A DNA stretch of 64,000 bases from a phage, in NCBI GenBank assembly GCA_020241125.1, contig GCA_020241125.1_4708.1; one strand, given 5' to 3'. The stretch's first letter is position 1; each line of letters starts with the position of its first letter. The notes under the pieces were generated by a model. That model worked only from the letters and a program-made list of their open reading frames with translations, made no database searches and had not been told where the DNA came from. Made by a program: the position numbers and the translations under genes. Of this stretch, positions 2,030 through 56,499 are shown piece by piece.

Positions 2030-3616
2030 TTAGAAGTTGCCTTTGGTAGTTACCGCATCCACCAGGTTAAACAAATCAACGCTCAGCTTATACACCTCCT
2101 GCTGGCTACGGTTGAGCAGCGGGCTGTATGCGGATGGGTTGATGTTCGGCATGGTGTACGGAATCGGTGCAGAGCCGTCAACGCTGATCTTGAACTGGCT
2201 GTCCAGGAACAGGTTAATCGCGCCGCTCACCATAACCGCATTCGGGTTGTTACCCAACATGGAGGGTAGGATATTGGTAATCATGTCAGAACGCATTTGT
2301 TCAGCAGCACGGTTACAATCGTATCCTTTAATGAACGGTACAGCGTCGGTAACCGCAACCGCCCACTGACCAGGCATGATACCGAGTTCTGGGTGACCAT
2401 GGTTGTCAGCAATGAAACGGAACGACTCCAACATGCGATACGTCATCGCAGCAGGCATCATTGCAGCAAGCGATGAGCAATACAGCGTTGGATAATCGAT
2501 CACGTCCCAGCTCTGGCTGTCGGTCGGCATCCAACCAAACTCGGTGGTTGCTGATGTACCACGACGAGCTTCCACATACGGGAATAACGTTAAGACGTCA
2601 CGGATATGTTCACCGAACATCCGTTTCATGTCAGCCCAACTCAGGCTACCGCTGAAAGCGAACCCTTCATCACGCATAATCGCACCGAATACCGGATGTG
2701 CAACCAGCGGTTCTTCACGAACAGCTTGAGCGGCTTCTACGTAAATATCCTCGTTCTCTGCGCTACCTGGATGAGACCCGCTTTCGTACGTCTGACGAAT
2801 AGCGCCAACATTATCGAAGGCTTTTCTCAGATAGATGGTTGGGATGTTCGTATCAGCACTAGCGGGTTTGATTTTCTCTGTTGCGAAACACATTGCTGCT
2901 TCCACACCACGGAAAACCGGTTCCGGTTGCGGTGGGTAGGATGTACGATGAACCACATCAGCGTAGGCTGGATCGAACTGTTGCATCACGTTCTGCATGG
3001 CTGGGTCCATGAACTGGTTATCAAAACCACCATTACCTACCCAACGTGCTGTTGATGCATAGGTCAGCGTATCCTGAACACGAGTACTGAACTGAACATC
3101 ACGATTAACGGGGTCGTATGCGCCGGTCAACAGGTTCGTTGCGTCCATCGGGGTTGCACGAACAATTTGCTTACCGAACATGTCCGTTGTGGTTGTTTCG
3201 GTTACCTGGATTACGTTCGTGAAGAAGAACACCAGTTCGTTCGGCAGATCGATAGCGCGCGTTGTAAACGCATCGAGGCTTACAGAATGGTCGGTGTATC
3301 CAGAAATGTAATGGACACGCTTGGTTCCTGGTGCGAGGGCCAAGGATTCTTCTACCGCCATCATGAAATGGAAACGACGTGTGCCCCAACCATTCGCAAT
3401 CTCCGAAACCCCCTCAGGTTCTGCAGACTGCTGCAACAAACCGGTTGCAAGCTTATTGATTGCTGATGGTGTTGTTGCCGTACCGAACCGCGTCGTGTTA
3501 ATGAAGTCTTCGATGCTACGCATGCTATCTGCGTGGAATCGTAGTGGACGACGTTGTACGTTGTTATACGGTGCGGTTTCAACCATCAGTATTTCACGAA
3601 CATTCATCGGGATCAT
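2030..3616 (-). CDS. hypothetical protein
   Basis: 528 aa track ORF; AAGAGGAAA upstream; start lies 1 nt after the stop of the upstream gene. Confidence 0.6.
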   Translation of the reverse strand: MIPMNVREILMVETAPYNNVQRRPLRFHADSMRSIEDFINTTRFGTATTPSAINKLATGLLQQSAEPEGVSEIANGWGTRRFHFMMAVEESLALAPGTKRVHYISGYTDHSVSLDAFTTRAIDLPNELVFFFTNVIQVTETTTTDMFGKQIVRATPMDATNLLTGAYDPVNRDVQFSTRVQDTLTYASTARWVGNGGFDNQFMDPAMQNVMQQFDPAYADVVHRTSYPPQPEPVFRGVEAAMCFATEKIKPASADTNIPTIYLRKAFDNVGAIRQTYESGSHPGSAENEDIYVEAAQAVREEPLVAHPVFGAIMRDEGFAFSGSLSWADMKRMFGEHIRDVLTLFPYVEARRGTSATTEFGWMPTDSQSWDVIDYPTLYCSSLAAMMPAAMTYRMLESFRFIADNHGHPELGIMPGQWAVAVTDAVPFIKGYDCNRAAEQMRSDMITNILPSMLGNNPNAVMVSGAINLFLDSQFKISVDGSAPIPYTMPNINPSAYSPLLNRSQQEVYKLSVDLFNLVDAVTTKGNF

Positions 3617-3617
3617 T

Positions 3618-5204
3618 TTATTTTTTTCCTCTTAAATTTACTACGTGTTCATTTAATCGAACAACTAATTGCACAAGCTGCTGACGGATATCTGCTGGAC
3701 AAAGCATCAATCCTTTACGGTCAGCTGGGACTTTCTCAAGGATTTCCGGGCCTGCTGCTGAAACATCCCAGTCCCATTCACAAAACGCATCGGCCACCAT
3801 GTTAATACCGACAACCGGTAAAGTTGTACGTTCATCTTCATACATGGCGTGTGGATACAATTTATTGACAGTAATGATCTCCTGTGGTTTTAATTGGTGG
3901 ATAATCTGATAAACATCGTCGCGTTTGACCTGGATACCTACGGTCAGCGCGGCCAGTTGAGGAAAACCCCAATGGTCTAACAAACAAGCTGCGATCGCTA
4001 ACGCTTTTGCCTGATGCACGGCTTCAATCGGTGCCAGACTTCTCGCCGGAAGATGGCTATCAAGCAACCATTGCGCCAGTGCTCGGCATCCGCGGTTAAT
4101 TGGTTTTAACTCAACGGTGTCATCGTGTTTAGCGTACGTGTATCCGTCGTAACGTTTTGCGATACGCGCATACATGTCTTCAACTTTACCGTAAGGTGCC
4201 GTTTCGTCGACGTCGTGCAACACACGTTCCATCTGGGTAAGATACGCAATGTCGAGAATGAGTACACGTGGTGAACGTTTATCTTTCACCATCAACGCAT
4301 CAATCACGCCTTGACTGTCTTCATCTTGCGCATTCCCTCGCGGCGTTTTCTCGCGAATCGGTCCGCTGAAACGTCGTTCCGTACAAAGGTTATTCACATA
4401 GCTGAAGATCAGTGTTACTAGATGCGTACAACTCACTAACACCCCATCTTTAACGACAGGCTGTACAGCTTGGTCCAAGTCGCGTACGGCGAGACGGCGG
4501 ACGATGGCTTGTGAACGCAACCAGCCGGGCACTTTCTCCGTCGACATGTAATCCACGGTCATCGACAGCGTGATCTTTTTATCACCCGTCTGTGCGCGGA
4601 TATAGTCTTCCAGTCGGTCGTAAGCGGCGATATCATGAATGCGTGTTTTATACATCAACGACATAGCCACTTCTTCTTTACGAACCGTTCCGTACGTTTT
4701 CCCTGCGTCAATCAGAAACTCTGCCCAAATCGGCACCATCAGACGGACGTAGATCGCTAACGCCGTTAACTCAACGTAATCATTTCGTAAATAGGTTTTC
4801 TCAGGTATGTCATCCTCACCTAATGTTGTTTTCATGTCCGGTGGTAATTTTACCCAACCTGGGGTATTACACAATGCCAGAATCTCTTCGTACACAACCG
4901 GTTTGTAAATTTCACCAACAGCGCGACTCAACTCCTCCATTTGTTGTTGTGGAGCAATGTAGTTATCCATCGCTTCACGTGCTTTAACGAACCCTTCGAA
5001 GATGTCGTCAATTCGACGTGGGTTCTTTTGTTCTATCCAGGCGAGATACTTGTTAATCTCCCGCATCTGATTGCTAGCCATATCCCCATCAATCTTGATG
5101 TAACCCTGACCTGAAAATTCCACAGTACGTCCATCACGGTGTTTGATGAGATAGTGATCCAGCTTTTCTTTTCCTTGCGTCGTAATGACGGGCACTATGT
5201 GCAT
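3618..5204 (-). CDS. hypothetical protein
   Basis: Track ORF runs to 5339 with a GTG start and an Arg-rich N-terminal extension that overlaps a promoter-like motif; probable true start is internal Met 46 (MHIVPVITTQ...) with GAGG upstream. Start coordinate is approximate. Confidence 0.55.
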   Translation of the reverse strand: MHIVPVITTQGKEKLDHYLIKHRDGRTVEFSGQGYIKIDGDMASNQMREINKYLAWIEQKNPRRIDDIFEGFVKAREAMDNYIAPQQQMEELSRAVGEIYKPVVYEEILALCNTPGWVKLPPDMKTTLGEDDIPEKTYLRNDYVELTALAIYVRLMVPIWAEFLIDAGKTYGTVRKEEVAMSLMYKTRIHDIAAYDRLEDYIRAQTGDKKITLSMTVDYMSTEKVPGWLRSQAIVRRLAVRDLDQAVQPVVKDGVLVSCTHLVTLIFSYVNNLCTERRFSGPIREKTPRGNAQDEDSQGVIDALMVKDKRSPRVLILDIAYLTQMERVLHDVDETAPYGKVEDMYARIAKRYDGYTYAKHDDTVELKPINRGCRALAQWLLDSHLPARSLAPIEAVHQAKALAIAACLLDHWGFPQLAALTVGIQVKRDDVYQIIHQLKPQEIITVNKLYPHAMYEDERTTLPVVGINMVADAFCEWDWDVSAAGPEILEKVPADRKGLMLCPADIRQQLVQLVVRLNEHVVNLRGKK

Positions 5205-5254
5205 AACAACCTCTTTTCGCGGTTCCCTGTTAAAACGTCTTCTGTGACGTCTAC

Positions 5255-5295
5255 CACAAAGGTAATATAAGCGTGAATAATTTTGGATTCCGGCT
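5255..5295 (-). promoter_or_regulatory. early-promoter-like motif, copy A
   Basis: Plus-strand AGGTAATATAAGCGTGAATAATTTTGG; minus-strand reads TATATTACC after an A/T-rich block. Confidence 0.4.
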
Positions 5296-5408
5296 GAGTT
5301 ATCGCTCAGCATGCAAGGCATCCCGCCGAAGCGAGACACCTTGCACTAACGGAAAATATTCGCGTTACCTTCTGAATCGAGGACTCAGAATGCGATGCTA
5401 AAGCATGA

Positions 5409-6200
5409 TTAGAACGCTAAGCCATCAAAGGCTACGGACGGATCATCGTCGTCATTTGCGCTTGGCGCATCCCAACGGGTATCAGGGGCCGCTGAAGCCG
5501 AACTTGATGCGTTAGAGTTACCGTTGTACTGGCCGTTACCAGCATTACGGTTACCGCCGCCGTTGTTATTGTTACGGTTATAGCTATTGTTGCCACCATT
5601 ACTTACGCTACGGCTTTCACCGTCGAAATTGGTTGCGAGGATGCTCGGCAACACTGCGCGATGAATACGTACAAATTCCAACGCACAAAGCGGAGAAACA
5701 ACCCCGATCTGTAAAGGTTGCCCAGACTCATCAACCAGAGCGTGGAAACGCGGTGGCTTGAATACGAATTGGATGTTCGGTTTTTGGTACGCGGTTACAG
5801 CGATATATACCGAACCATCATCGTTCTTACCAACCCATGTTGTACTTTCGGTAATCTGTTTCTTCTTACCTGGATTATTGCGATCGTCGATAACCTTTTC
5901 GTTCTTCATCGCAAAACGTTGGCCTGGCTTACCCTTAGCAACCTGCTCGAGGATCGCAAGCAGGTTATAGAACGCGTATGAACTCATGCGTGCCCAAATG
6001 CTTTCGGCGCGACCCTGCTGGTCTTTACGACCTGTATAAACCGTGATGCGCGGTTGATTCTTAGCAACGCTAATTTTCAATGAGGGGATTGAATTACCGC
6101 CCTCAACCTTTTCGTCCGCCCACAGTTTCCAGTTGTTGTCGTCATACGCTGTAGGAATAATGTTTCCTTGTGGTTTACTGCCCGAATTCCAATTGCTCAT
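5409..6200 (-). CDS. hypothetical protein with SSB-like architecture
   Basis: 263 aa: about 190 aa globular part, then a G/N-rich linker (NGGNNSYNRNNNNGGGNRNAGNGQYNGN), ending in an acidic tip DDDDPSVAFDGLAF. Confidence 0.5.
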   Translation of the reverse strand: MSNWNSGSKPQGNIIPTAYDDNNWKLWADEKVEGGNSIPSLKISVAKNQPRITVYTGRKDQQGRAESIWARMSSYAFYNLLAILEQVAKGKPGQRFAMKNEKVIDDRNNPGKKKQITESTTWVGKNDDGSVYIAVTAYQKPNIQFVFKPPRFHALVDESGQPLQIGVVSPLCALEFVRIHRAVLPSILATNFDGESRSVSNGGNNSYNRNNNNGGGNRNAGNGQYNGNSNASSSASAAPDTRWDAPSANDDDDPSVAFDGLAF

Positions 6201-6273: not shown

Positions 6274-7071
6274 TCAGCGGAACATGTCCAACAGAAAACG
6301 TTTTGCGAAGGGGTCACGTAACTGGTTGACACCAAAGCGTGTACGGTCTTCCGTTGTTAATGGATTCCACTGACTCTGTTTCGCAAGATCTAACAGCATC
6401 CTTTTTATTTTCACCGGCCCGCTATTGAACTGTACGGCTTGGTCACCGAACGTTCCCAATGTCATCTTTGTAAATGGAAGGTTCGCAACCTCTGGACGAT
6501 CCCCACCAGTAAGTTTGGTCGACCACTGATGTTTTCGTTTCAAGGTTCCGGTATGGCTCTCCACCAAAATAAGTTCACCAAAACCGGTTCTTGCCAACAA
6601 GTCAGAAACATAGTGCGTGGTGATATACGATGTCTTGGTTATCGTGGGTAATTTACAATCCATCGATTCGATATTAGGGAGTCGATCTACAGACGCCATC
6701 AACCCACGATAAAGTGTAGCGAGTCCTTTTTGTTTTTCGGTGTGTGGCTCCTTATGTATAGCGTGCGGATAAACACGCTTTATTGACGCATAGGTTGGCG
6801 CATATATCCGCAAACGAATATGGGGAATGAGTTCATTCACCAACTGCCTTAGCTGCAGTAACTCGTTTTGAAAATCCCCTGTTATCATCGATAACGGTAA
6901 TTTATGTTGTTCAACGTCTTCAAAGCTTTCAACGAAATTGCGTGCTAAAGTACGCAGGTTGAACAACCAATCCATCGGTGTTTCTGGCTGTTGCTGTACT
7001 GCTGATAGTGTTGCTGACGTCCCTACCGATAAAGGATAATCACCTAACGTGCGGGCGTACATATTGCTCAT
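6274..7071 (-). CDS. hypothetical protein
   Basis: Track ORF 6274-7107; likely start at internal Met (MSNMYARTLG...) preceded by AAGAAGGAG. Confidence 0.5.
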   Translation of the reverse strand: MSNMYARTLGDYPLSVGTSATLSAVQQQPETPMDWLFNLRTLARNFVESFEDVEQHKLPLSMITGDFQNELLQLRQLVNELIPHIRLRIYAPTYASIKRVYPHAIHKEPHTEKQKGLATLYRGLMASVDRLPNIESMDCKLPTITKTSYITTHYVSDLLARTGFGELILVESHTGTLKRKHQWSTKLTGGDRPEVANLPFTKMTLGTFGDQAVQFNSGPVKIKRMLLDLAKQSQWNPLTTEDRTRFGVNQLRDPFAKRFLLDMFR

Positions 7072-7090
7072 ACCCCACAACTCCTTCTTA

Positions 7091-8233
7091 TCATGGCAAC
7101 GTATCAAGCCAAGCAGAAACCTTTAAGGCATCAACGTTCGGGTATTTATTACGAATGCGTTCGACCAACAAACGCTTAACGTTGTCCTTTGTCAAGTCTC
7201 CACCTTTCTCGATAACGTTATTGACAAAACTGTTCTTTAATAGCGACTGGTTGTTCTTGGCGTCCGTTTTAATTGACCAAACGAAGCCTGGATACAAAGA
7301 AGGGATAGAACGAAACGTTTTCGCCGCATCGTCTTCCTTATCGCAGCGTATTCGGATATGATCACCCTTCTTCAATGGAGCCAATTCCCGTTCCAACACA
7401 CGGACAATTTCATCTCCAACAAGACCATGCAGTTTTATCGTCTTGTAGACATCTGCTTTCTTGTTTTCAACAAATTCCCACTGGTCGTTAAACGTTTCCG
7501 TTAACATATAACGGAGATACCCTTTTGGACCTTCTTCACCGTGCGCCAAGCGACCGAACGAACCGCCAACCATGATACGTCCTTTCTGGGATTGTAAGTG
7601 AATATGTCCGCTCACGATCCATCCCTGGGTCTTCTCCACCATTGCGTTATACGCATCGCTGCTATGAACACATGTCGCTTTTAACGCTTCTGGTGGAAGC
7701 TGATATTCAAACGCACCGTGCATCAGAATGAAGCCCGGCGATCCCTTCTCATCAATAAGTCGGTTCACGGCTGACAACGTCACATCCGGGTCGTGGCTGT
7801 AGTTATCTGGAAGATAAAGTACTTTTAAACCAAAGTCTTCATCAACCATGCAGAGGTCATCGTAATAACGAACTTTCGCTCCTATCTCCATGACCTCGTT
7901 CTGTTCAACGAACCACTGACTTTGCTTCTGGTCGTGTAAGTTGGTACCCTCAAGAAAGATCAACGTAATATCGTGTTTTCTTGCATACCGTAACAACCAG
8001 GTACCCCAGGCACGAACAGCAACCACGTCACTCGTCACAAACGTCGTGATACGATCGAAGACATCACCACTGAACGTAATCACATCAAGCAGCGCAGGAT
8101 CTTCTTTTGTAATGTAATAACGCAGCTGGCTAATCAGGTTTACTGTCGGTGTTTGACGATGGATAAAGTGAATATCCGACAAGTTGATTCCACGTAATAC
8201 CCCAGGCGTTTTATTTCGACTGAAGTCTCGCAT
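7091..8233 (-). CDS. calcineurin-like metallophosphoesterase, possibly SbcD/Mre11-type nuclease
   Basis: Ordered motifs LSDIHFIH (D-x-H), SGDVFDR (GD-x-x-DR), EGTNLHD (GNHD-like), MHGAF, GHIH (GH-x-H). Confidence 0.6.
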   Translation of the reverse strand: MRDFSRNKTPGVLRGINLSDIHFIHRQTPTVNLISQLRYYITKEDPALLDVITFSGDVFDRITTFVTSDVVAVRAWGTWLLRYARKHDITLIFLEGTNLHDQKQSQWFVEQNEVMEIGAKVRYYDDLCMVDEDFGLKVLYLPDNYSHDPDVTLSAVNRLIDEKGSPGFILMHGAFEYQLPPEALKATCVHSSDAYNAMVEKTQGWIVSGHIHLQSQKGRIMVGGSFGRLAHGEEGPKGYLRYMLTETFNDQWEFVENKKADVYKTIKLHGLVGDEIVRVLERELAPLKKGDHIRIRCDKEDDAAKTFRSIPSLYPGFVWSIKTDAKNNQSLLKNSFVNNVIEKGGDLTKDNVKRLLVERIRNKYPNVDALKVSAWLDTLP

Positions 8234-12346: not shown

Positions 12347-12696
12347 CACATATCTTCAGTATGAATCGCTACTTCATACCCGCAGCATTACCTGCAGCTC
12401 CTGGTGTTACCAGGACGGAGAGATCATCTCATCACCCACGAAGGGTGTTCCGCGCTACCCTCAGCGAATTCGAGGGACATGATCGTTGAACCTTCCACCG
12501 ATAATCGGTGGCTAGGCTGCTGATTAAACATTGTACGTTGGGGTGGCATCCTGGTTCAGGACTGTCGTTGAAGCCTCCCAACATCCACTCACTTATTTCC
12601 GCCTTATCGGCTCCCATAAGGGCAGAGTGGCTTTAGCCCGTCTCAGCAATTCACGGAATTCAAGCTCTTCCTTTCAGAAGGCAGGGCCTCATCTGA
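12347..12696 (-). other. putative group I self-splicing intron (no ORF) in beta-prime gene
   Basis: About 350 nt between GYNA (exon 1) and DFDGD (exon 2); read-through hits a stop. Exon 1 ends in U, insert ends in G. Contains GGUUCAACGAUCAUG with complementary AGAUGAUC downstream and several compact hairpins including a UUCG tetraloop. Confidence 0.55.
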
Positions 12697-13947
12697 AGCA
12701 TTGTATCCCTTAAGGATCATCACGCTTAACCCGATGGTATTATCCTGCGGATCGCGTTTAACCTTGGTGATTTCAAGACATTGGTTACTGCTTCGGTCAA
12801 GTGATGGGTTTCGAACAAAACCGCACACAATCCCATCGAACGGTGTATCAGCAATAAGCTCATCGTGCAGCTCACTCATCATCGGATGATAATTACGGAC
12901 ATGTTCCGCAACGAACGCACGTGCTGCTCTCGGTGAATAACCACGATGGAATAACTTGGATTGGATATGTTCTTTATTGGTTAAAGTAAATGGTGCGTAT
13001 GGGAAATGCAGATGATAATAACGATGGTTCGCTGTTATCGAACTGATTACAGTACGCGTGGTGAATGGATGTAATGTACCTAATATGTTTTTACGTGTGA
13101 TACCTTTCTTCTTACCGATGAACTCATCGAAAATCGCCGCATGGTATTGCAGTAGCTTCAATTGCACTTTCGCCATCCAGTTTTCTTTCTTTCTGGCGCT
13201 CAAAGGTGTTGTTGGGTGATAGATACTATTCAACGTACCGATAGCATCGATCGCACCTTCCATTTTGCTATCCGCATAACGACCGGTTGGCGTATTCTCG
13301 ATAACGAACATCATGGCCGCAGGAAAGCTGATATACTGACTGAAGAACTTATCACGATGGATACGGATGAATTCTCGTAGCGTATCAACTTTCTCCGTGT
13401 TCTTCGGTCCGCGTAACGTCGGTCCTTTATACAAGATCTCCATGATGCGATCGAAGTTCTGTATAAAACTATTTACACCGCGACGTATCCCGAATACATC
13501 GAATTGCTGCTCCAGATAGTTCTTGAGTTCGATGGGTCGTTTTACATTTGGACGGTAACTGGCATCAATGAGCCACGTCATCGTTTCAAAGCTTTTGATA
13601 TTCAACTCGCTTGCCAGCACGAGATGGACCAACGGGTTAATGAACGCATCAATTCCTTCAGGAACACGCGCCCAAACCGTCGAACGAATCTCTTGTTCTG
13701 CTGGATAGGTTACAACCGTTTTACAGTTCGGACACACCGTGCCGAGCAGCTCACCACGATTGTAGAAACCACAACCACATTGTGGCGTGATATCCAACGT
13801 ATCGCTGGAGTAAACACGGGTGATAAAACTGTTTAATTTCTTCTTCTCTTCGACGACTTTTGTATCGTAATCATTCAACAAAATCGGCGTGAAAGGAAGT
13901 TCTGCGAGCTGTCTATCGAAACTCACGATATCGAGCATGATGGCCAT
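12697..13947 (-). CDS. non-virion-type RNA polymerase beta-prime-like subunit, exon 1
   Basis: Zn-finger CGCGFYNRGELLGTVCPNC; RKNILG...TRTVISS (beta-prime RQNLLGKR..SGRSVI); GFVRNPSLDRSS (NRAPTLHR); ends GYNA. Track ORF 12643-13947 includes intron read-through. Confidence 0.65.
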
Positions 13948-14039: not shown

Positions 14040-15935
14040 TTAGAACAGGTTGAATGCCCCACCCATGTTGTTAACGCCAACATTCGGACGATCGCTACGT
14101 GCGTAGATGTTACCGGAGATGTTACCCAGACCACGAGCACGTGCTGCCATGTTACCACGAACAGCGGTACCTGCCAGATGCTGGATGTTCTCAGGACGGA
14201 TGGTGAAGCCAGCATCAGCAGCGGCCTCGATCAGCGCCTGCAGTGCTAACGGATCGAAGTCGTAACGCATTGCCCAGCCGGTTTGTTCCCAGCTACCAGA
14301 CAGAACACGATCAATGATTTCGTGACGAGCGACAACACGCTGAGACATCGTCATATCGGTACGGTCGAAGCTGTCTTCCCAAGCTTCTACGGTATCCGGG
14401 TTAGTGATGTTCATCATGTACAGATCGTCCATATCACGAATATCGTGACGGTGACCATCCTGGTGGTTATAATGACCCAGCGGGATACGGTTACCGGTAG
14501 CGTAGACCAGTGGTGCGCCGTACTGATATTTCTTGCTGAAGCAACCCAGGGTAGTATCATCGAAGGCACGGAAGAGTGCTTTGTAACCTTCGGAGATTTC
14601 CCGGACTTCACCTTCAACTTTGCCCGTATAGATCTTCTCAGCCGCCGGGATCATACGCAGCAGCCAGCTGTATTCGCCTTCTTCCGGTACGTCGATAGAA
14701 ATCAGCAGAGACGGATACAGTACCTGTTGCAGGAACTTGTAAATCTGCTCGTTGGTTTGAGTAGACAGATCCAGCGGTGCGGTAACTTCCGGATCCAGTA
14801 CCATCGCCAGAGCACCCGGGTTATGCGGACCAATACCACGAGCAGCGTTGCTGATTAAAGACTGTGCCCACGCCATACCGCTGTTCAGCGTAGCGATGGT
14901 GCCAATCAGACCCAACACGAAAGTGTTCGGCGTGAACGCATCCAGCTCCAGCGGGTAAGCGCTGGTCATCACGTAACGCGGTTGGTATTGTACAGTCGGC
15001 GGTACCGGATAACCGTTAACCAGAACAGGGCCTTGGTTGAAGGTCGGGTTCTGCGGGCTGTAGGTCAGGTCAATGTAACCGGTGGTTGCGACCAGACGCT
15101 GCTGACTATCGTAATCGCTCATCGCTTGACGGATGCGGTTAGAGATAGTTACAGTGATGTCAGAACGCACAGGGTTACCAACAATATCGCTGTCCTGCAT
15201 ACCGCTGGTGTTGTACTGAACGCTGCTGATTGGCTGATCGCTTGCCATCATGCCCAGGTTGAACTGCGGCAGACCCAGTTTATCGCCGAGACGGATTTCG
15301 ATCGCGGTTTGGATTGCGTTATCTGCAGCAGACAGCAGGGTGGTTGCCAGATGCGCAGATTCAGCGGTGATTTCATTGGTCACCACAGCCAGACCAGCGA
15401 TACGAGCAGTACCATTAGACTTACCACCGATAGCTGCATACATTGCCGCCATGACTTCGTTGATGAACGTACCGTTCAGGTTATCAACCCAGGTACGCGG
15501 CACCAGAATGTTACCATGCGGGCCTTGTTCTTCACGACGCGGCAGCGGAGCCAAACCGGCAACCAGTGGAAGCACATAACCGAAGAAGTGGTTATGGTCA
15601 CCAACTTTTGCACCGCTCATAACAACCAGGGTCGGATACGGTACACTGTATTGGTTAGGATCGACGGTCACCATGATGAAGTCGTCTTTGAATCCTTTAT
15701 CTTCCAGTTCTTTTTCCATCAGACGACGGAGATTCAGTACCTGCTCGGAGCCAGTATTACGGCTAATACGACGGCTCAGTGTACGGTTGATCGTACGCAT
15801 CGTATGAGTTACTTTAGGCTGGCCAGCAAAATCTGCAGCGGTTTCCAGCGCCTCATCAGCACGTTGTGCGGTGCGGGTTTCAGCTGCACGAATTTCTACA
15901 TTATCGTTACCGTTATTACGTACGTCTAAGCCCAT
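14040..15935 (-). CDS. hypothetical protein; candidate phage-nucleus shell protein (chimallin-like)
   Basis: 631 aa; AGAGGA RBS; early-promoter-like motif C upstream; sits directly upstream of the beta-prime gene, the arrangement recalled for phiKZ gp54-gp55. No sequence motif verified. Confidence 0.4.
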   Translation of the reverse strand: MGLDVRNNGNDNVEIRAAETRTAQRADEALETAADFAGQPKVTHTMRTINRTLSRRISRNTGSEQVLNLRRLMEKELEDKGFKDDFIMVTVDPNQYSVPYPTLVVMSGAKVGDHNHFFGYVLPLVAGLAPLPRREEQGPHGNILVPRTWVDNLNGTFINEVMAAMYAAIGGKSNGTARIAGLAVVTNEITAESAHLATTLLSAADNAIQTAIEIRLGDKLGLPQFNLGMMASDQPISSVQYNTSGMQDSDIVGNPVRSDITVTISNRIRQAMSDYDSQQRLVATTGYIDLTYSPQNPTFNQGPVLVNGYPVPPTVQYQPRYVMTSAYPLELDAFTPNTFVLGLIGTIATLNSGMAWAQSLISNAARGIGPHNPGALAMVLDPEVTAPLDLSTQTNEQIYKFLQQVLYPSLLISIDVPEEGEYSWLLRMIPAAEKIYTGKVEGEVREISEGYKALFRAFDDTTLGCFSKKYQYGAPLVYATGNRIPLGHYNHQDGHRHDIRDMDDLYMMNITNPDTVEAWEDSFDRTDMTMSQRVVARHEIIDRVLSGSWEQTGWAMRYDFDPLALQALIEAAADAGFTIRPENIQHLAGTAVRGNMAARARGLGNISGNIYARSDRPNVGVNNMGGAFNLF

Positions 15936-17350: not shown

Positions 17351-19504
17351 TTACTCTGCGGTTTCTTGCTTCGGTAAATAACTTGCTGCGATGTCTTGGG
17401 CTAACAATGTATTGTTTTTATTCGAGATGAAAATACCATAACTTTCCATTAACGCGTAATACGAACGCACGAGCGTAGAGATCAATCGACGAATATCCAT
17501 ACCTTGAATAAAGATATCAGGAAGCCCGGAGGCTTCGATCACCGGTAATGGTATCGTTAAGTTGCTTATCGTTTTCTTATCGTTACGTACAATCCAATCA
17601 CGGAAACGTTGTTGTAACCCTTTATCCTCCCAGGAATCAATCCAATCGTTAAGAAGCGTTTTGTTCTTCGTCGCCAACGGCACACGAACCCCAACATAGG
17701 GTGGTTCCTGGCAATGGCCGTACGATTGAGCAAACACCTCTTCCCACATATCGTAAGACTGTTTCGTTACTGCAACATGCGGTTTCACTTTAACACGTGT
17801 TAAGAAATCAGGATCACCACGTTTCATGGACTCAACGATTTCGTTTTCTAACGAGATAATATCGTCAAGAACCAATCGAATGCTGATCTTCTCGTTACGT
17901 AACAGCTTATCCATGATACCACACATCATGCGTTCAACACGTTTGACGATCATTTTTGGTGCTGACGCATCGCGCATAACCGGACCTTTCAATTCCAGCT
18001 TCGGTGGATTGATAGGAACCCCTTCACGCATGGTCATGTAACCGTAATAGTTTTTACCCATCGAGGTTAACGACAGAATCAAGAACATATATTCGTTCTT
18101 CATTTCCATCACGTACATATGCTCTTTCGCCACACCGATATTACCAGAACACATCGCCATCAGATGAACCGTAATCTGCGTAACCAGATAGATAAGCGTG
18201 TTTGCTAAGCGCGTCGAAACTGGATTGATCTCCATATTTCCAAATCGCCACTGAACCCACTCCTGGCAGGTAAACACCGTCGAGTCGGTATCAGACAACA
18301 CACCCACTTCACGGATTGCTGATGGGAAAGCATAAACACCAGCCGGTTGGTTCTCGGTACGCCAGAACGCCATAATCAAATCAGCATAGCTTTGAATACG
18401 CTGTAGCATTAATTTTGTCGTTGCTGCAGTAAGACGATAACCAAGCTCATTTCCTTTTTCTAGCGCTACGTAAATCGCTTCCCCATTCAAGAACTCCGTA
18501 CATTGTGCTGTAATCCAAGCGACCGTGTTGTTATCCATGGAAGCAATAATGGCTTTAGCCTCTTCCATCGTTTCAACAGGTTCGGATGCCAGCTCGCATA
18601 ACGAATCAAGAAAATCTCGAACAAATTCAGGATTAAGCTCACGTAACGAGTACAGGTTATTGCTATACATGTAGCAGGCGCGTTCCAGTGGGGTTAAACC
18701 GGTAATTAACTCCCGGATAGTCAGTTCTTTCTCTGGGTCGAAAGTATATCGATGCAAGCATTTCGATACGTTAGCCCAAACCTCTTCCGGCGTAGGGTAA
18801 TGTAGTTTGTATTTTACCATTACCTGTTCAATGGCTTTACGATCGCTGTTGCGGACAATACTCACGATGTTTTCAATTGCGATATCACAATCGTAATAAT
18901 GGAAATTGCCCGCAAGGAAGCGTTCGTTGTTCGCATTGGCTGAACCTGAAGCACAGCGACACGTTGTCGTTAAACTTGGATGCGCAATTGGATTATAAAA
19001 AGGGTTAAACTTGGACGCCTGGGTTCCTGACAAACTGTTGTTATCTAACTTGGTGTTGGTTTGTCGTTTATCGTGTAACTCAGCTTCATCTTTACGTCCG
19101 TGTGCTTGCGCTATCGACATTTGTTTCTTTTGTTTCTTACGCAACTTACCGTTTTCAACCGCAAAGTCGCTTAGCACACTGGAACGTGTTTCACGTGGAT
19201 AACAGTTAGCCCACACCGGCGTGATAATTAAATTATTTTCTTTAATATCATTGAAGTATTGGCTGAACTTGATGACTTCTTTTTCTCGATTTCCTTCGGT
19301 GCGCTGTGTTAATACAAGGCAGTCGGGATCAACCATCCCGTATTTTCCACCAGGACGAACCGTATCAAGGACAAACTGCAACGCTTCCTGCTGTGATATC
19401 CCACGCATGCGCATTAAGAACAGGGTATAATCCTGTACCGCTTCTTTGGTCATATCCAACGTACGGCCATATCCGTTTTCATCGTAAAAGAACGGATTTT
19501 CCAT
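17351..19504 (-). CDS. hypothetical protein; candidate divergent family-B DNA polymerase palm domain
   Basis: 717 aa; LSDTDSTVF (motif C-like YGDTDS), YSNNLYS about 120 aa upstream (motif B-like NSLYG), DNNSLSG further upstream (weak motif A-like); GGAGG RBS. Confidence 0.45.
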   Translation of the reverse strand: MENPFFYDENGYGRTLDMTKEAVQDYTLFLMRMRGISQQEALQFVLDTVRPGGKYGMVDPDCLVLTQRTEGNREKEVIKFSQYFNDIKENNLIITPVWANCYPRETRSSVLSDFAVENGKLRKKQKKQMSIAQAHGRKDEAELHDKRQTNTKLDNNSLSGTQASKFNPFYNPIAHPSLTTTCRCASGSANANNERFLAGNFHYYDCDIAIENIVSIVRNSDRKAIEQVMVKYKLHYPTPEEVWANVSKCLHRYTFDPEKELTIRELITGLTPLERACYMYSNNLYSLRELNPEFVRDFLDSLCELASEPVETMEEAKAIIASMDNNTVAWITAQCTEFLNGEAIYVALEKGNELGYRLTAATTKLMLQRIQSYADLIMAFWRTENQPAGVYAFPSAIREVGVLSDTDSTVFTCQEWVQWRFGNMEINPVSTRLANTLIYLVTQITVHLMAMCSGNIGVAKEHMYVMEMKNEYMFLILSLTSMGKNYYGYMTMREGVPINPPKLELKGPVMRDASAPKMIVKRVERMMCGIMDKLLRNEKISIRLVLDDIISLENEIVESMKRGDPDFLTRVKVKPHVAVTKQSYDMWEEVFAQSYGHCQEPPYVGVRVPLATKNKTLLNDWIDSWEDKGLQQRFRDWIVRNDKKTISNLTIPLPVIEASGLPDIFIQGMDIRRLISTLVRSYYALMESYGIFISNKNNTLLAQDIAASYLPKQETAE

Positions 19505-54607: not shown

Positions 54608-56254
54608 TTAGGCTCCACGAGGTCCCGTTAAGTTGCGTAATAGGAACGCAACCGTATCGTAACCAATATCGATGTTGAATTTATTTTTACCACTTACCCA
54701 GAAAGCTCGCTTCTTGTGCGAGTTGGTAATTTCGTCAATAGCTTCCATGGAATAAAGAACGTTAACCGAGACCGTATCACCATCAAAGTCCCCACCAAGT
54801 CCGGCGAGGTATGGCGCAGGGACAATAGTCGTTTCTACGAACGAAGCATTAGGTAACCAGTCGGGGTATTCCCATGCGATAAATCGTTCATCCGTTATTG
54901 GTTCCCAGTTACTATCCAGTTCGGTTTTCGGTTTTGCGGCGACGGTTGTACGTGCGTAACAGGTTAACGGGATAACGGATTGCATACCTGATACCGGATA
55001 ACGTGTTACCATCGCAGCCAGGTTATTCCAGTACTTATATCCGGCAATATAGATAAGCTCGGTGTAAGTAATGGGGTGAACATCCGCGCCAGGTTTATTC
55101 AACATCTCCGGGGGTAATTCACTCATGTCACGGAATAACCGAAACGAATCGTTGTTCACATAGACGAGGCAAAGATATCGTCCATTGACCATGATAGGCT
55201 CGTTACGCACGCCAGGATCGCTTAAGGTGTTCAGTAAACGTTCTATTCCGTCCCATGTTGTAAAGTCATCGATGGTGTCTGGATCAAGCGTGACGCGCTC
55301 ACGTTCCATCGTTTCGGTATCAATAAGTTCAACTTCTGTAACATCACGGACAAATATTTCCTGCAAAATACCTGTACGTAACGCATGTTGCGTTACTGGG
55401 AGAGCGGCTTTACTCATCTGGTATAACCCTAACTGAACCGCGGTACAGGAAGGCTGGTTAGGCGACCCTAATACCTCCGTTGTGGGGTTAATTGCCGAAA
55501 TAACGTTACGGGTTGAGTTCCAAACGCGACGTGAACCAAACTTACCTTGGAAGATCCCTTTCTTACCCTGGAACATATCCAACAGTAAAGCGTAGATATC
55601 GTTGAATGTTCTCTGTAAGCTCCAGCGCTGGCCGTCGTAAACGGGATCGGAATAATCTTTTAATCCATCAGGGACGGTGTTAGAAATTGCAAGGAAACGA
55701 CGATACAACTCCGTGATTTCTTGCTCGCTTTCATACCCACCTTCTTTTACTTCTATTTCACGTAAGCCTGCAGGCAATACCAGTAAGTGACGGGTCATCG
55801 CTTTGAACATGTTCTCTTCGACAACTTTAATTCGTAGCTCTCGTTGAGCTGAACCCGTTGAAACGAACTTGATATCCGCGACGTGTTGTGCAAAGAACCC
55901 GTATCCTGTTTGTCCTGTTAATGCATCAGACGCAACGAAGTCGCGTTGTTCGGGATCCCACCGAGCGTACGCCTTCCCCGACATGATATCGCCATAGAGG
56001 TGTTTTAATCGAATGAGACGGTCGTAAATGACAGGATGCAGGATTTCAACCTTGCATTCAATCACCGCAAATCGACGGTCTCGATCTTCACTACCCGCAC
56101 TACCAAAGATGGTGTAAGAATAGAAACCATCATCGTGGAAATTACCGGTGCTTGGGTCACGAATGCTCATGCTCGTGATCTTGGGGAGAAAACGTAACTG
56201 CTGTTTATCGAGGTGTAAAATACTAATATTAAACGGCTCTCTGACTTTAGCCAT
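54608..56254 (-). CDS. virion-type RNA polymerase beta-prime-like subunit, N-terminal fragment
   Basis: Track ORF 54608-56296; likely start at Met 15 with AAGAGGAG. Motifs LLVLPAGLREI (VLPPDLRP), ITELYRRF (DLNDLYRR), GGDFDGDTVSVNVLYSMEA (NADFDGDQMAVH). Confidence 0.7.
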   Translation of the reverse strand: MAKVREPFNISILHLDKQQLRFLPKITSMSIRDPSTGNFHDDGFYSYTIFGSAGSEDRDRRFAVIECKVEILHPVIYDRLIRLKHLYGDIMSGKAYARWDPEQRDFVASDALTGQTGYGFFAQHVADIKFVSTGSAQRELRIKVVEENMFKAMTRHLLVLPAGLREIEVKEGGYESEQEITELYRRFLAISNTVPDGLKDYSDPVYDGQRWSLQRTFNDIYALLLDMFQGKKGIFQGKFGSRRVWNSTRNVISAINPTTEVLGSPNQPSCTAVQLGLYQMSKAALPVTQHALRTGILQEIFVRDVTEVELIDTETMERERVTLDPDTIDDFTTWDGIERLLNTLSDPGVRNEPIMVNGRYLCLVYVNNDSFRLFRDMSELPPEMLNKPGADVHPITYTELIYIAGYKYWNNLAAMVTRYPVSGMQSVIPLTCYARTTVAAKPKTELDSNWEPITDERFIAWEYPDWLPNASFVETTIVPAPYLAGLGGDFDGDTVSVNVLYSMEAIDEITNSHKKRAFWVSGKNKFNIDIGYDTVAFLLRNLTGPRGA

Positions 56255-56499
56255 GGAGACACTCCTCTTTACCACCACCGGCTGCGGCGGTATCATCTGA
56301 ACACACGAGAGACGTAATGGGTGATGGCGTCACCCATCGCTTCCTTGCTTGAGGCGAGGAAGTTATTAGGTTACGTACCTGCCTGATTTTATCAGGTGGG
56401 CGATGTGTGAAGTTACGCTTCAACATTATCAATGCCGAAGGTAAACTTCGTGCATCACGTTCCAACGTAACATGGGAACGTATCGAACTGGAGGTATAC

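Follow-up and report, generated by a model that had tools for sequence, protein, structure and literature searches.

Does the open reading frame (ORF) at positions 5409..6200 on the minus strand of a phage DNA stretch of 64,000 nucleotides (contig GCA_020241125.1_4708.1 of GenBank assembly GCA_020241125.1; the whole stretch is hereafter the window) encode a single-strand DNA-binding protein (SSB)? The question was raised by a sequence-only reading which, without naming the strand, attributed an SSB architecture to the 263-residue product (ATG at 6198-6200 and stop codon at 5409-5411 in the ORF listing). The ORF is chmC/imp6 of a jumbo phage that resembles Goslar and belongs to the nucleus-forming Chimalliviridae, a gene that is already known and has been characterised in a near-identical phage. 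The SSB architecture holds as an analogy, that is, a single-strand binder followed by a linker and an acidic tip, but not as homology, given a predicted Whirly/PUR fold and no sequence similarity to SSBs. The call of the chmC gene is routine; the SSB-like C-terminal tip of its relatives is an apparently unreported lead.

The window shows 96-97.6% nucleotide identity to Escherichia phage Goslar, a nucleus-forming jumbo phage, and the ORF product is identical to the Goslar protein (Goslar_00176, HOV27_gp176, YP_009820861.1) in 262 of 263 positions, the sole change being an extra Gly in the N/G tract. Among the homologs of PhiPA3 gp61 listed by Enustun et al. 2023 (PMC10643120), YP_009820861.1 is that of Goslar; the name ChmC is used for Goslar gp176 (Enustun et al. 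2024, PMC11077065), and Imp6 is the other name of the phiKZ ortholog gp67 (bioRxiv 10.1101/2024.03.27.586873). A BLASTP comparison of the window protein with PhiPA3 gp61 yields an E-value of 1e-15, and a tblastn search identifies remote homologs in phiKZ, PhiPA3, 201phi2-1 and other jumbo phages, with 27-33% identity over residues ~22-199. The orthologs in the three named phages are gp67 (PHIKZ067), gp61 and gp123, respectively, and homology to PhiPA3 gp61, phiKZ gp67 and Goslar gp176 places the window protein in the ChmC family. It also falls in phrog_3284 (E 1.6e-36), which carries the label 'unknown function' in PHROGs. A Pfam scan of the ORF detects zero families at E<=1, so that neither SSB nor Whirly nor PurA is recognised, and a sequence search of the PDB with the whole protein returns only noise (WD40, E 0.18).

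An AlphaFold2 model built with 118 homologs has a predicted local distance difference test score (pLDDT) above 90 for residues ~10-190 and below 50 for residues 199-263. The confident part (5631..6173, minus strand, residues ~10-190) is modelled as a Whirly/PUR-like globular domain, a predicted binder of single-stranded nucleic acid. In the model, DSSP delineates two tandem repeats of a beta-sheet and a helix, as is characteristic of the Whirly/PUR superfamily: a beta-beta-beta-alpha unit (5934..6083, minus strand; strands 40-46, 49-59 and 65-71, helix 74-89) and a beta-beta-beta-beta-alpha unit (5631..5918, minus strand; strands 95-105, 113-125, 131-136 and 143-146, helix 165-190). A Foldseek search started with the model is led by MRP1/2 and human PURA, and the best structural neighbours are plant Whirly proteins that bind single-stranded DNA (ssDNA), with 9-10% identity in the structural alignments. 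No protein with an oligonucleotide/oligosaccharide-binding (OB) fold appears near the top of either list of structural matches, so that the OB fold which the sequence-only reading had envisaged for residues 1-190 was not found. As judged from the model, ChmC of the window thus belongs to the Whirly/PUR superfamily at the level of the fold only. The modelled fold independently reproduces the assignment published for PhiPA3 ChmC, including the first repeat with three strands as opposed to four in plant Whirly proteins, a difference that was likewise reported for the PhiPA3 protein (PMC11077065). The residues R35, R44 and R63 of PhiPA3 ChmC, mutation of which abolishes both RNA and ssDNA binding (PMC11077065), align to K42, R51 and R71 of the window protein.

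The published experiments, those of Enustun et al. 2024 (PMC11077065) except where another source is given, show what such a protein does. PhiPA3 ChmC is a homotetramer by size-exclusion chromatography with multi-angle light scattering, and ChmC binds single-stranded nucleic acid by the basic face of its beta-sheet, with dissociation constants for the PhiPA3 protein of 58 nM for single-stranded RNA vs 184 nM for ssDNA and Hill coefficients of 2.4 for ssDNA vs 1.6 for RNA. With RNA, PhiPA3 ChmC forms liquid-like condensates that require the disordered C-terminal region; the protein that lacks this region no longer localises to the shell of the phage nucleus but retains RNA binding and tetramerisation. 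The tail is described as an N/G region forming condensates followed by an S/D/E-rich 'electronegative cluster'. In infected cells, ChmC crosslinks to phage mRNAs in enhanced crosslinking and immunoprecipitation (eCLIP), and its pulldowns contain ChmB, RNA polymerase (RNAP) subunits and ribosomal proteins. ChmC of PhiPA3 coats the shell rather than the DNA mass, and that of Goslar forms intranuclear puncta. The protein is abundant, early and essential: knockdown of Goslar gp176 with dCas13d reduces plaquing to ~4% and yields smaller nuclei with less DNA, retention of phage mRNAs in the nucleus and lower levels of phage proteins. An RNA-binding mutant of Goslar ChmC does not rescue the knockdown; with the tail-less protein, the nucleus grows, but the titre is not restored. 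In phiKZ, gp67 (Imp6) directly binds Imp1/PicA, an import factor, and the complex of the two is stable (bioRxiv 10.1101/2024.03.27.586873); transposon insertions in orf67 are not tolerated (PMC12676376). PhiPA3 gp61 was first picked up by UvsX/RecA proximity labelling, in 1/3 trials (PMC10643120; PMC11077065), and neither gp61 nor its shell-localised neighbours were found in mature virions (PMC10643120). According to reviews, ChmC has a putative role in mRNA export and an accessory one in import. The SSB proposal had been staked on an OB fold and on ssDNA binding; the former is absent from the model, yet the latter was measured, at 184 nM, for the PhiPA3 ortholog (PMC11077065). As to the accompanying idea of a role in the replisome, the roles demonstrated for the orthologs concern phage mRNA and the nuclear shell instead (PMC11077065).

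The C-terminal part of the window protein does have the composite structure that suggested an SSB, namely a globular domain with a disordered, G/N-rich linker behind it and, at the end, an acidic tip whose last residue is Phe, and both the pLDDT profile and the composition bear this out. The linker (5454..5630, minus strand, residues 191-249) is N/G/S-rich, with pLDDT below 50 from residue 199 onwards, and is followed by an acidic/hydrophobic tip, DDDDPSVAFDGLAF (5412..5453, minus strand, residues 250-263, as read from the sequence). This order of an N/G-rich and then an acidic segment is the one described for ChmC. The last 75 residues, ATNFDGESRSVSNGGNNSYNRNNNNGGGNRNAGNGQYNGNSNASSSASAAPDTRWDAPSANDDDDPSVAFDGLAF, include 16 N, 11 S, 10 A, 10 G and 8 D, in agreement with the low complexity noted earlier. 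Among 960 six-frame ORFs of the Goslar genome and the window, no protein other than ChmC of the window has both a low-complexity linker and an acidic/hydrophobic tip. The linker is the counterpart of the N/G-rich region of PhiPA3 ChmC that drives condensate formation with RNA (PMC11077065). The tip itself retains the terminal Phe, Leu at position -3 and Phe at position -6 but Ala stands at -2 in place of Pro and Gly at -4 in place of Asp. Relative to the C-terminal peptide of bacterial SSB (SSB-Ct), the run of Asp is shifted upstream by ten residues. The tip peptide of Goslar is WDAPSANDDDDPSVAFDGLAF, and the closest relatives, P0002 and P0003 (63% identical), end with DDDDDDAAPAFQGLPL. A PDB search with the window tail returns no SSB, only a spurious match to scytovirin, and the strict SSB-Ct sequence, D-D-D-I/L-P-F at a free C-terminus, is absent from the window protein.

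Across the ChmC family, the tip looks different. A profile search identified 120 relatives, and an exhaustive search that does not depend on a word index identified 612 cluster representatives, with 137 new sequences examined. In nearly all of these, the match does not extend into the final ~8-10 residues; therefore, the tip did not drive the detection of these sequences. The layout seen in the window protein exceeds what chance would give: the G/N-rich tail is a family-wide feature (33.5% G and 15.3% N among the tail residues of the 120 relatives), and the tails are not alignable. The final residue is hydrophobic in 115 of the 120 relatives and in 122 of the 137, and the preceding positions are conserved as well: among the 120 relatives, D is found at -4 in 93, I or L at -3 in 82, P at -2 in 95, and F or W at -1 in 98. 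The ending [DE][ILMVF]P[FWYMLI], with the consensus D-D-D-I/L-P-F/W, is present in 167 of 256 ChmC relatives, compared with 0.022 expected from the pooled tail composition, and in none of the 960 background ORFs (0/960). Several relatives end exactly with DFDDDIPF, and some share 10 of the last 11 residues with Escherichia coli SSB, PPMDFDD(S/D)IPF. When the tail of the relative P0148 (...QPAVQPPMDFDDSIPF) serves as a PDB query, just two matches are returned, both to bacterial SSBs at the last residue (E 0.19, a weak match over a short segment). In its last four to six residues, the tip of most relatives matches the bacterial SSB-Ct motif, a highly conserved hexapeptide or nonapeptide and the docking site of at least 17 partner proteins (PMC5872125, PMC10018359). 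The canonical tip occurs in 22 of 30 sequence clusters and is missing from the two clusters that contain the cultured model phages, where the tips are offset or degenerate: FDEDMPSF in phiKZ, FDDEIPNF in PhiPA3, ELASFDW in 201phi2-1 and VAFDGLAF in Goslar and the window. Two relatives with canonical tips occupy the orthologous locus adjoining chimallin; their contigs measure 213 and 254 kb. Accordingly, the echo of the SSB ending DDDIPF that had been perceived in the window is borne out for most of the relatives but not for the window protein, whose tip is best read as derived from the family motif D-D-D-[IL]-P-[FW] and degenerate. In the literature searched, no paper ties ChmC to SSB; the ChmC paper is silent on SSB and speaks of an 'electronegative cluster', probably because the model phages lack the canonical tip.

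Contamination of the family set by true OB-fold SSBs was considered and rejected: 259 of 259 sequences contain the ChmC globular domain, and none has a precomputed Pfam SSB match. One further candidate, P0135 (945 residues, ~11 perfect repeats), matches residues 134-183 of the query with an E-value of 1.5e-21 but lacks the ChmC architecture; it was left out as spurious, since repetitive DNA translated by artefact seems to be its source. Five metagenomic relatives of 419-481 residues (P0012, P0145, P0148, P0197 and P0233) have two tandem ChmC domains followed by a single Q/P/N-rich tail with an SSB-like tip (e.g., PPMDFDDSIPF). These double-domain proteins recall the SSBs of Deinococcus and Thermus, which have two OB domains per chain.

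Compared with characterised systems, the window protein is closest to Goslar ChmC, with the same gene neighbourhood, Whirly-like domain and N/G-rich disordered tail, and then to the PhiPA3 and phiKZ proteins, whose domains are ~28-32% identical to that of the window protein and whose tips differ as indicated above. The plant Whirly proteins (StWhy1/PBF-2 p24, PDB 1l3a; StWhy2, PDB 3n1h) have neither the N/G linker nor the acidic tip. Trypanosoma brucei MRP1/MRP2 (PDB 2gia/2gid/2gje) and Pur-alpha (3k44, 8cht) show no detectable sequence similarity to ChmC; MRP1/2 form a heterotetramer involved in mitochondrial RNA editing and, unlike ChmC, lack an SSB-like tail. E. coli SSB (PDB 1eqq/4mz9) is an OB-fold tetramer with a disordered linker and the SSB-Ct tip MDFDDDIPF. 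SSB and ChmC are alike in that both are tetramers on single-stranded nucleic acid, the disordered G/N/Q-rich linker of each supports phase separation, and each ends in an acidic tip with a terminal aromatic residue; residues 191-249 of the window protein represent a linker of this type; E. coli SSB, too, phase-separates through its linker (bioRxiv 10.1101/797431). The two differ in fold (OB vs Whirly), are not homologous by the Pfam scan, the structural matches or a phmmer search with E. coli SSB, and ChmC orthologs prefer RNA. T7 gp2.5, which ends ...EADEDGDF, shares the terminal Phe with the window protein, and T4 gp32 is also acidic-tailed; both have another fold, no sequence similarity to ChmC and no long N/G-rich linker. 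The acidic tails of gp2.5 and gp32 bring in partners for the replisome and are also competitors of DNA at the binding cleft.

The genomic context is compatible with these assignments. Directly downstream of chmC lies a homolog of phiKZ gp68 and Goslar gp175, a subunit associated with the non-virion RNAP (nvRNAP) (3618..5339, minus strand; phrog_3209, E 5.5e-68), for which the start annotated in Goslar corresponds to position ~5204 of the window, and next to it, two genes downstream of chmC, the homolog of Imp1/PicA (phiKZ gp69; 2030..3616, minus strand; BLASTP E 2e-14 over the full length). Upstream are a gp66-like gene (6274-7107, minus strand) and, two genes away, an SbcD-like nuclease subunit (7091-8233, minus strand; phrog_100, E 2.5e-38, with a weak Pfam Metallophos match), which holds the same position in phiKZ (gp65). 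The order on the minus strand, SbcD-like, gp66-like, ChmC, gp68-like and Imp1/PicA, is that of phiKZ gp65-gp69, with synteny to phiKZ gp65-gp70 and to Goslar, and a matching order is found beside chimallin on two metagenomic jumbo-phage contigs (L005 and L006, 213 and 254 kb). Chimallin (ChmA), the marker of nucleus-forming phages, is encoded at 14040..15935 (minus strand; 631 residues; PF25677 Chimallin_Phikzvirus, E 2.7e-26; Goslar_00189), so that the position of the ORF in a block with nvRNAP subunits, Imp1/PicA and chimallin also identifies it as chmC. A divergent family B DNA polymerase is encoded at 17351-19504 (minus strand; PF20286, E 2.4e-204), ~11 kb from chmC. Given this polymerase and the SbcD-like gene, chmC is set among genes of DNA metabolism as well as RNAP genes.

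Several further observations concern the relationship of the window to Goslar. The ChmC paper names Goslar ChmA 'gp246', but Goslar_00246 is a putative ribonuclease HI and the chimallin of the window corresponds to Goslar_00189; apparently, the Goslar numbering in that paper is not uniform, although gp176 and gp41 do fit the locus tags. The window aligns to Goslar (MK327938) in three collinear blocks, with two Goslar segments precisely missing (168195-169660 and 211748-213798) at junctions ~12689-12698 and ~54781-54789 of the window. The first missing segment consists of the NUMOD1/HNH endonuclease Goslar_00186 and the group I intron Goslar_00187, and the second of the group I intron Goslar_00229 and the HNH-like Goslar_00230. 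Therefore, the RNAP-subunit genes of the window are intron-less and uninterrupted (ORFs 12643-13947 and 54608-56296); an Rfam scan of the entire window gave 0 matches, hence no group I intron. A protein of 263 residues that is 99% identical to the window ChmC, with the tip PSIAFDGLAF (V to I), is encoded on a 241-kb contig of an assembly labelled Salmonella enterica serovar Schwarzengrund (P0001), which suggests that Goslar-like phages are present in Salmonella sequencing data.

Taken together, the ORF very probably encodes a ChmC that acts as published and has an SSB-like tail, in which the linker would mediate self-association and the tip would serve in docking and/or autoinhibition. The ChmC tetramer would coat nascent phage transcripts and pass them to shell-associated export or import hubs. 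By analogy with bacterial SSB, the linker would provide weak multivalent self-association, and the acidic/hydrophobic tip might be a short docking motif for partner proteins that may also fold back on the basic binding face. This tip would be the SSB-Ct motif itself in most relatives and would have diverged to DDDDPSVAFDGLAF in this phage. A number of points weigh against this interpretation. The experiments concern other phages, the window ChmC being the Goslar protein plus one Gly, and the affinities for RNA and DNA, the tetramer and the condensates come from the PhiPA3 ortholog only, which is ~28% identical. The role in mRNA export is 'potential' or 'likely' in the authors' own words (PMC11077065), and the same protein is tied to protein import via Imp1 binding. 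The best structural neighbours of the model are the plant ssDNA-binding Whirly proteins, not the RNA-binding MRP1/2. The docking role of the tip is putative, and the published deletion takes out linker and tip together (PMC11077065). Finally, SSB-Ct is defined by Pro at -2 and an adjacent run of Asp, and the tip of the window protein has neither.

Several alternatives were weighed. In the first, the protein would be a canonical OB-fold SSB, homologous to bacterial SSB, T7 gp2.5 or T4 gp32, with a tip that recruits the replisome. The succession of a domain, a G/N linker and an acidic Phe-ending tip fits this scheme, as does the acidic run plus Phe of T7 gp2.5, but the fold result refutes it as a statement of homology, and we consider it highly improbable. 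Another alternative, a virion or structural protein with a low-complexity tail unrelated to nucleic acids, has nothing more than the low complexity of the tail in its favour and carries a negligible probability in view of the nucleic-acid-binding fold, the binding measured for the ortholog, the absence of gp61 from mature virions (PMC10643120) and a genomic position in the nvRNAP/import block rather than in a structural module. A third is the view of the tail that follows from the published work, namely that it is a compositional device only, a condensate driver with a solubilising acidic cluster that damps non-specific RNA binding, so that the likeness to SSB-Ct would be coincidental or a matter of charge convergence. 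Deletion of the tail ends the condensates and spares RNA binding and tetramerisation, the tips of the model phages are non-canonical, the window tail alone retrieves no SSB from the PDB, and about one-third of the relatives lack the strict motif, all in line with this view. Composition does not predict, however, the position-specific conservation of the tip (Pro at -2 in 79%, I/L at -3 in 68% and F/W at -1 in 82%; 167 endings vs 0.022 expected), the invariable location of the motif at the free C-terminus or the match of some relatives to 10 of the 11 last residues of E. coli SSB. A purely compositional tail is possible but doubtful.

A role as a functional rather than homologous counterpart of SSB, in which ChmC, in addition to or instead of acting as an mRNA factor, coats ssDNA in chimallivirus replication and recombination and the RNA phenotypes are partly secondary, is unlikely on present evidence. 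ChmC would then be a Whirly tetramer in the SSB niche within the phage nucleus, with a tip that recruits phage or imported host enzymes of DNA metabolism. The best structural neighbours of the model bind ssDNA in plant organelles; the PhiPA3 ortholog binds ssDNA at 184 nM with a cooperativity above that for RNA; ChmC is very abundant and early and forms puncta inside the Goslar nucleus; nuclei are smaller and contain less DNA upon knockdown; UvsX/RecA proximity labelling found ChmC, though in a single trial of three; and the family tip equals SSB-Ct, with E. coli SSB likewise phase-separating by its linker. Furthermore, the deposited Goslar annotation names no SSB, and phmmer searches with E. 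coli SSB (verified against 1eqq), T7 gp2.5 and T4 gp32 against the 960 six-frame ORFs of Goslar and the window return nothing at E<=10, pairwise searches being of limited sensitivity, such that a divergent OB-fold protein could be missed. Goslar has no second ChmC paralog, i.e., ChmC is single-copy. An OB-fold SSB is characteristic of group 2 jumbo phages (Iyer et al. 2021, PMC7824862), whereas the description of the phiKZ-like group 1 comprises divergent forms of family B DNA polymerase and DnaB together with RNase H1, with neither a clamp nor a primase nor an SSB named (PMC7824862). Weak as these negative results are, they leave room for the reading in which ChmC also fills the SSB niche. 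What speaks against it is the threefold preference for RNA together with the eCLIP binding to phage mRNAs, the location of PhiPA3 ChmC on the shell rather than the DNA mass, the growth of the nucleus with the tail-less Goslar mutant, which implies that DNA replication proceeds without the tip, and the recovery of RNAP subunits, ChmB and ribosomal proteins but no replisome proteins in the pulldowns; the possible escape of a divergent OB-fold SSB from the searches counts on the same side.

Few non-structural proteins of nucleus-forming phages have been studied by experiment, and ChmC is among them. The tip motif offers a handle on how ChmC joins the binding of RNA to the nuclear shell and to import that depends on Imp1/PicA. 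It is equally a handle on whether the interactome of host SSB is exploited by these phages and on what serves as SSB in them. A tentative proposal, which we would not yet favour, gives ChmC the place of an SSB-equivalent hub in nucleus-forming phages, as a Whirly tetramer with a convergent or captured SSB tail whose tip is a genuine docking motif of the SSB-Ct type. If this is true, the tip would bring phage enzymes, or host proteins that interact with SSB, to single-stranded nucleic acid at the phage nucleus or inside it. ChmC may then compete with host SSB for those host proteins; it could, in addition, be the SSB that is 'missing' in phiKZ-like phages, and the Goslar-type tip would represent a lineage-specific re-tuning of the motif.

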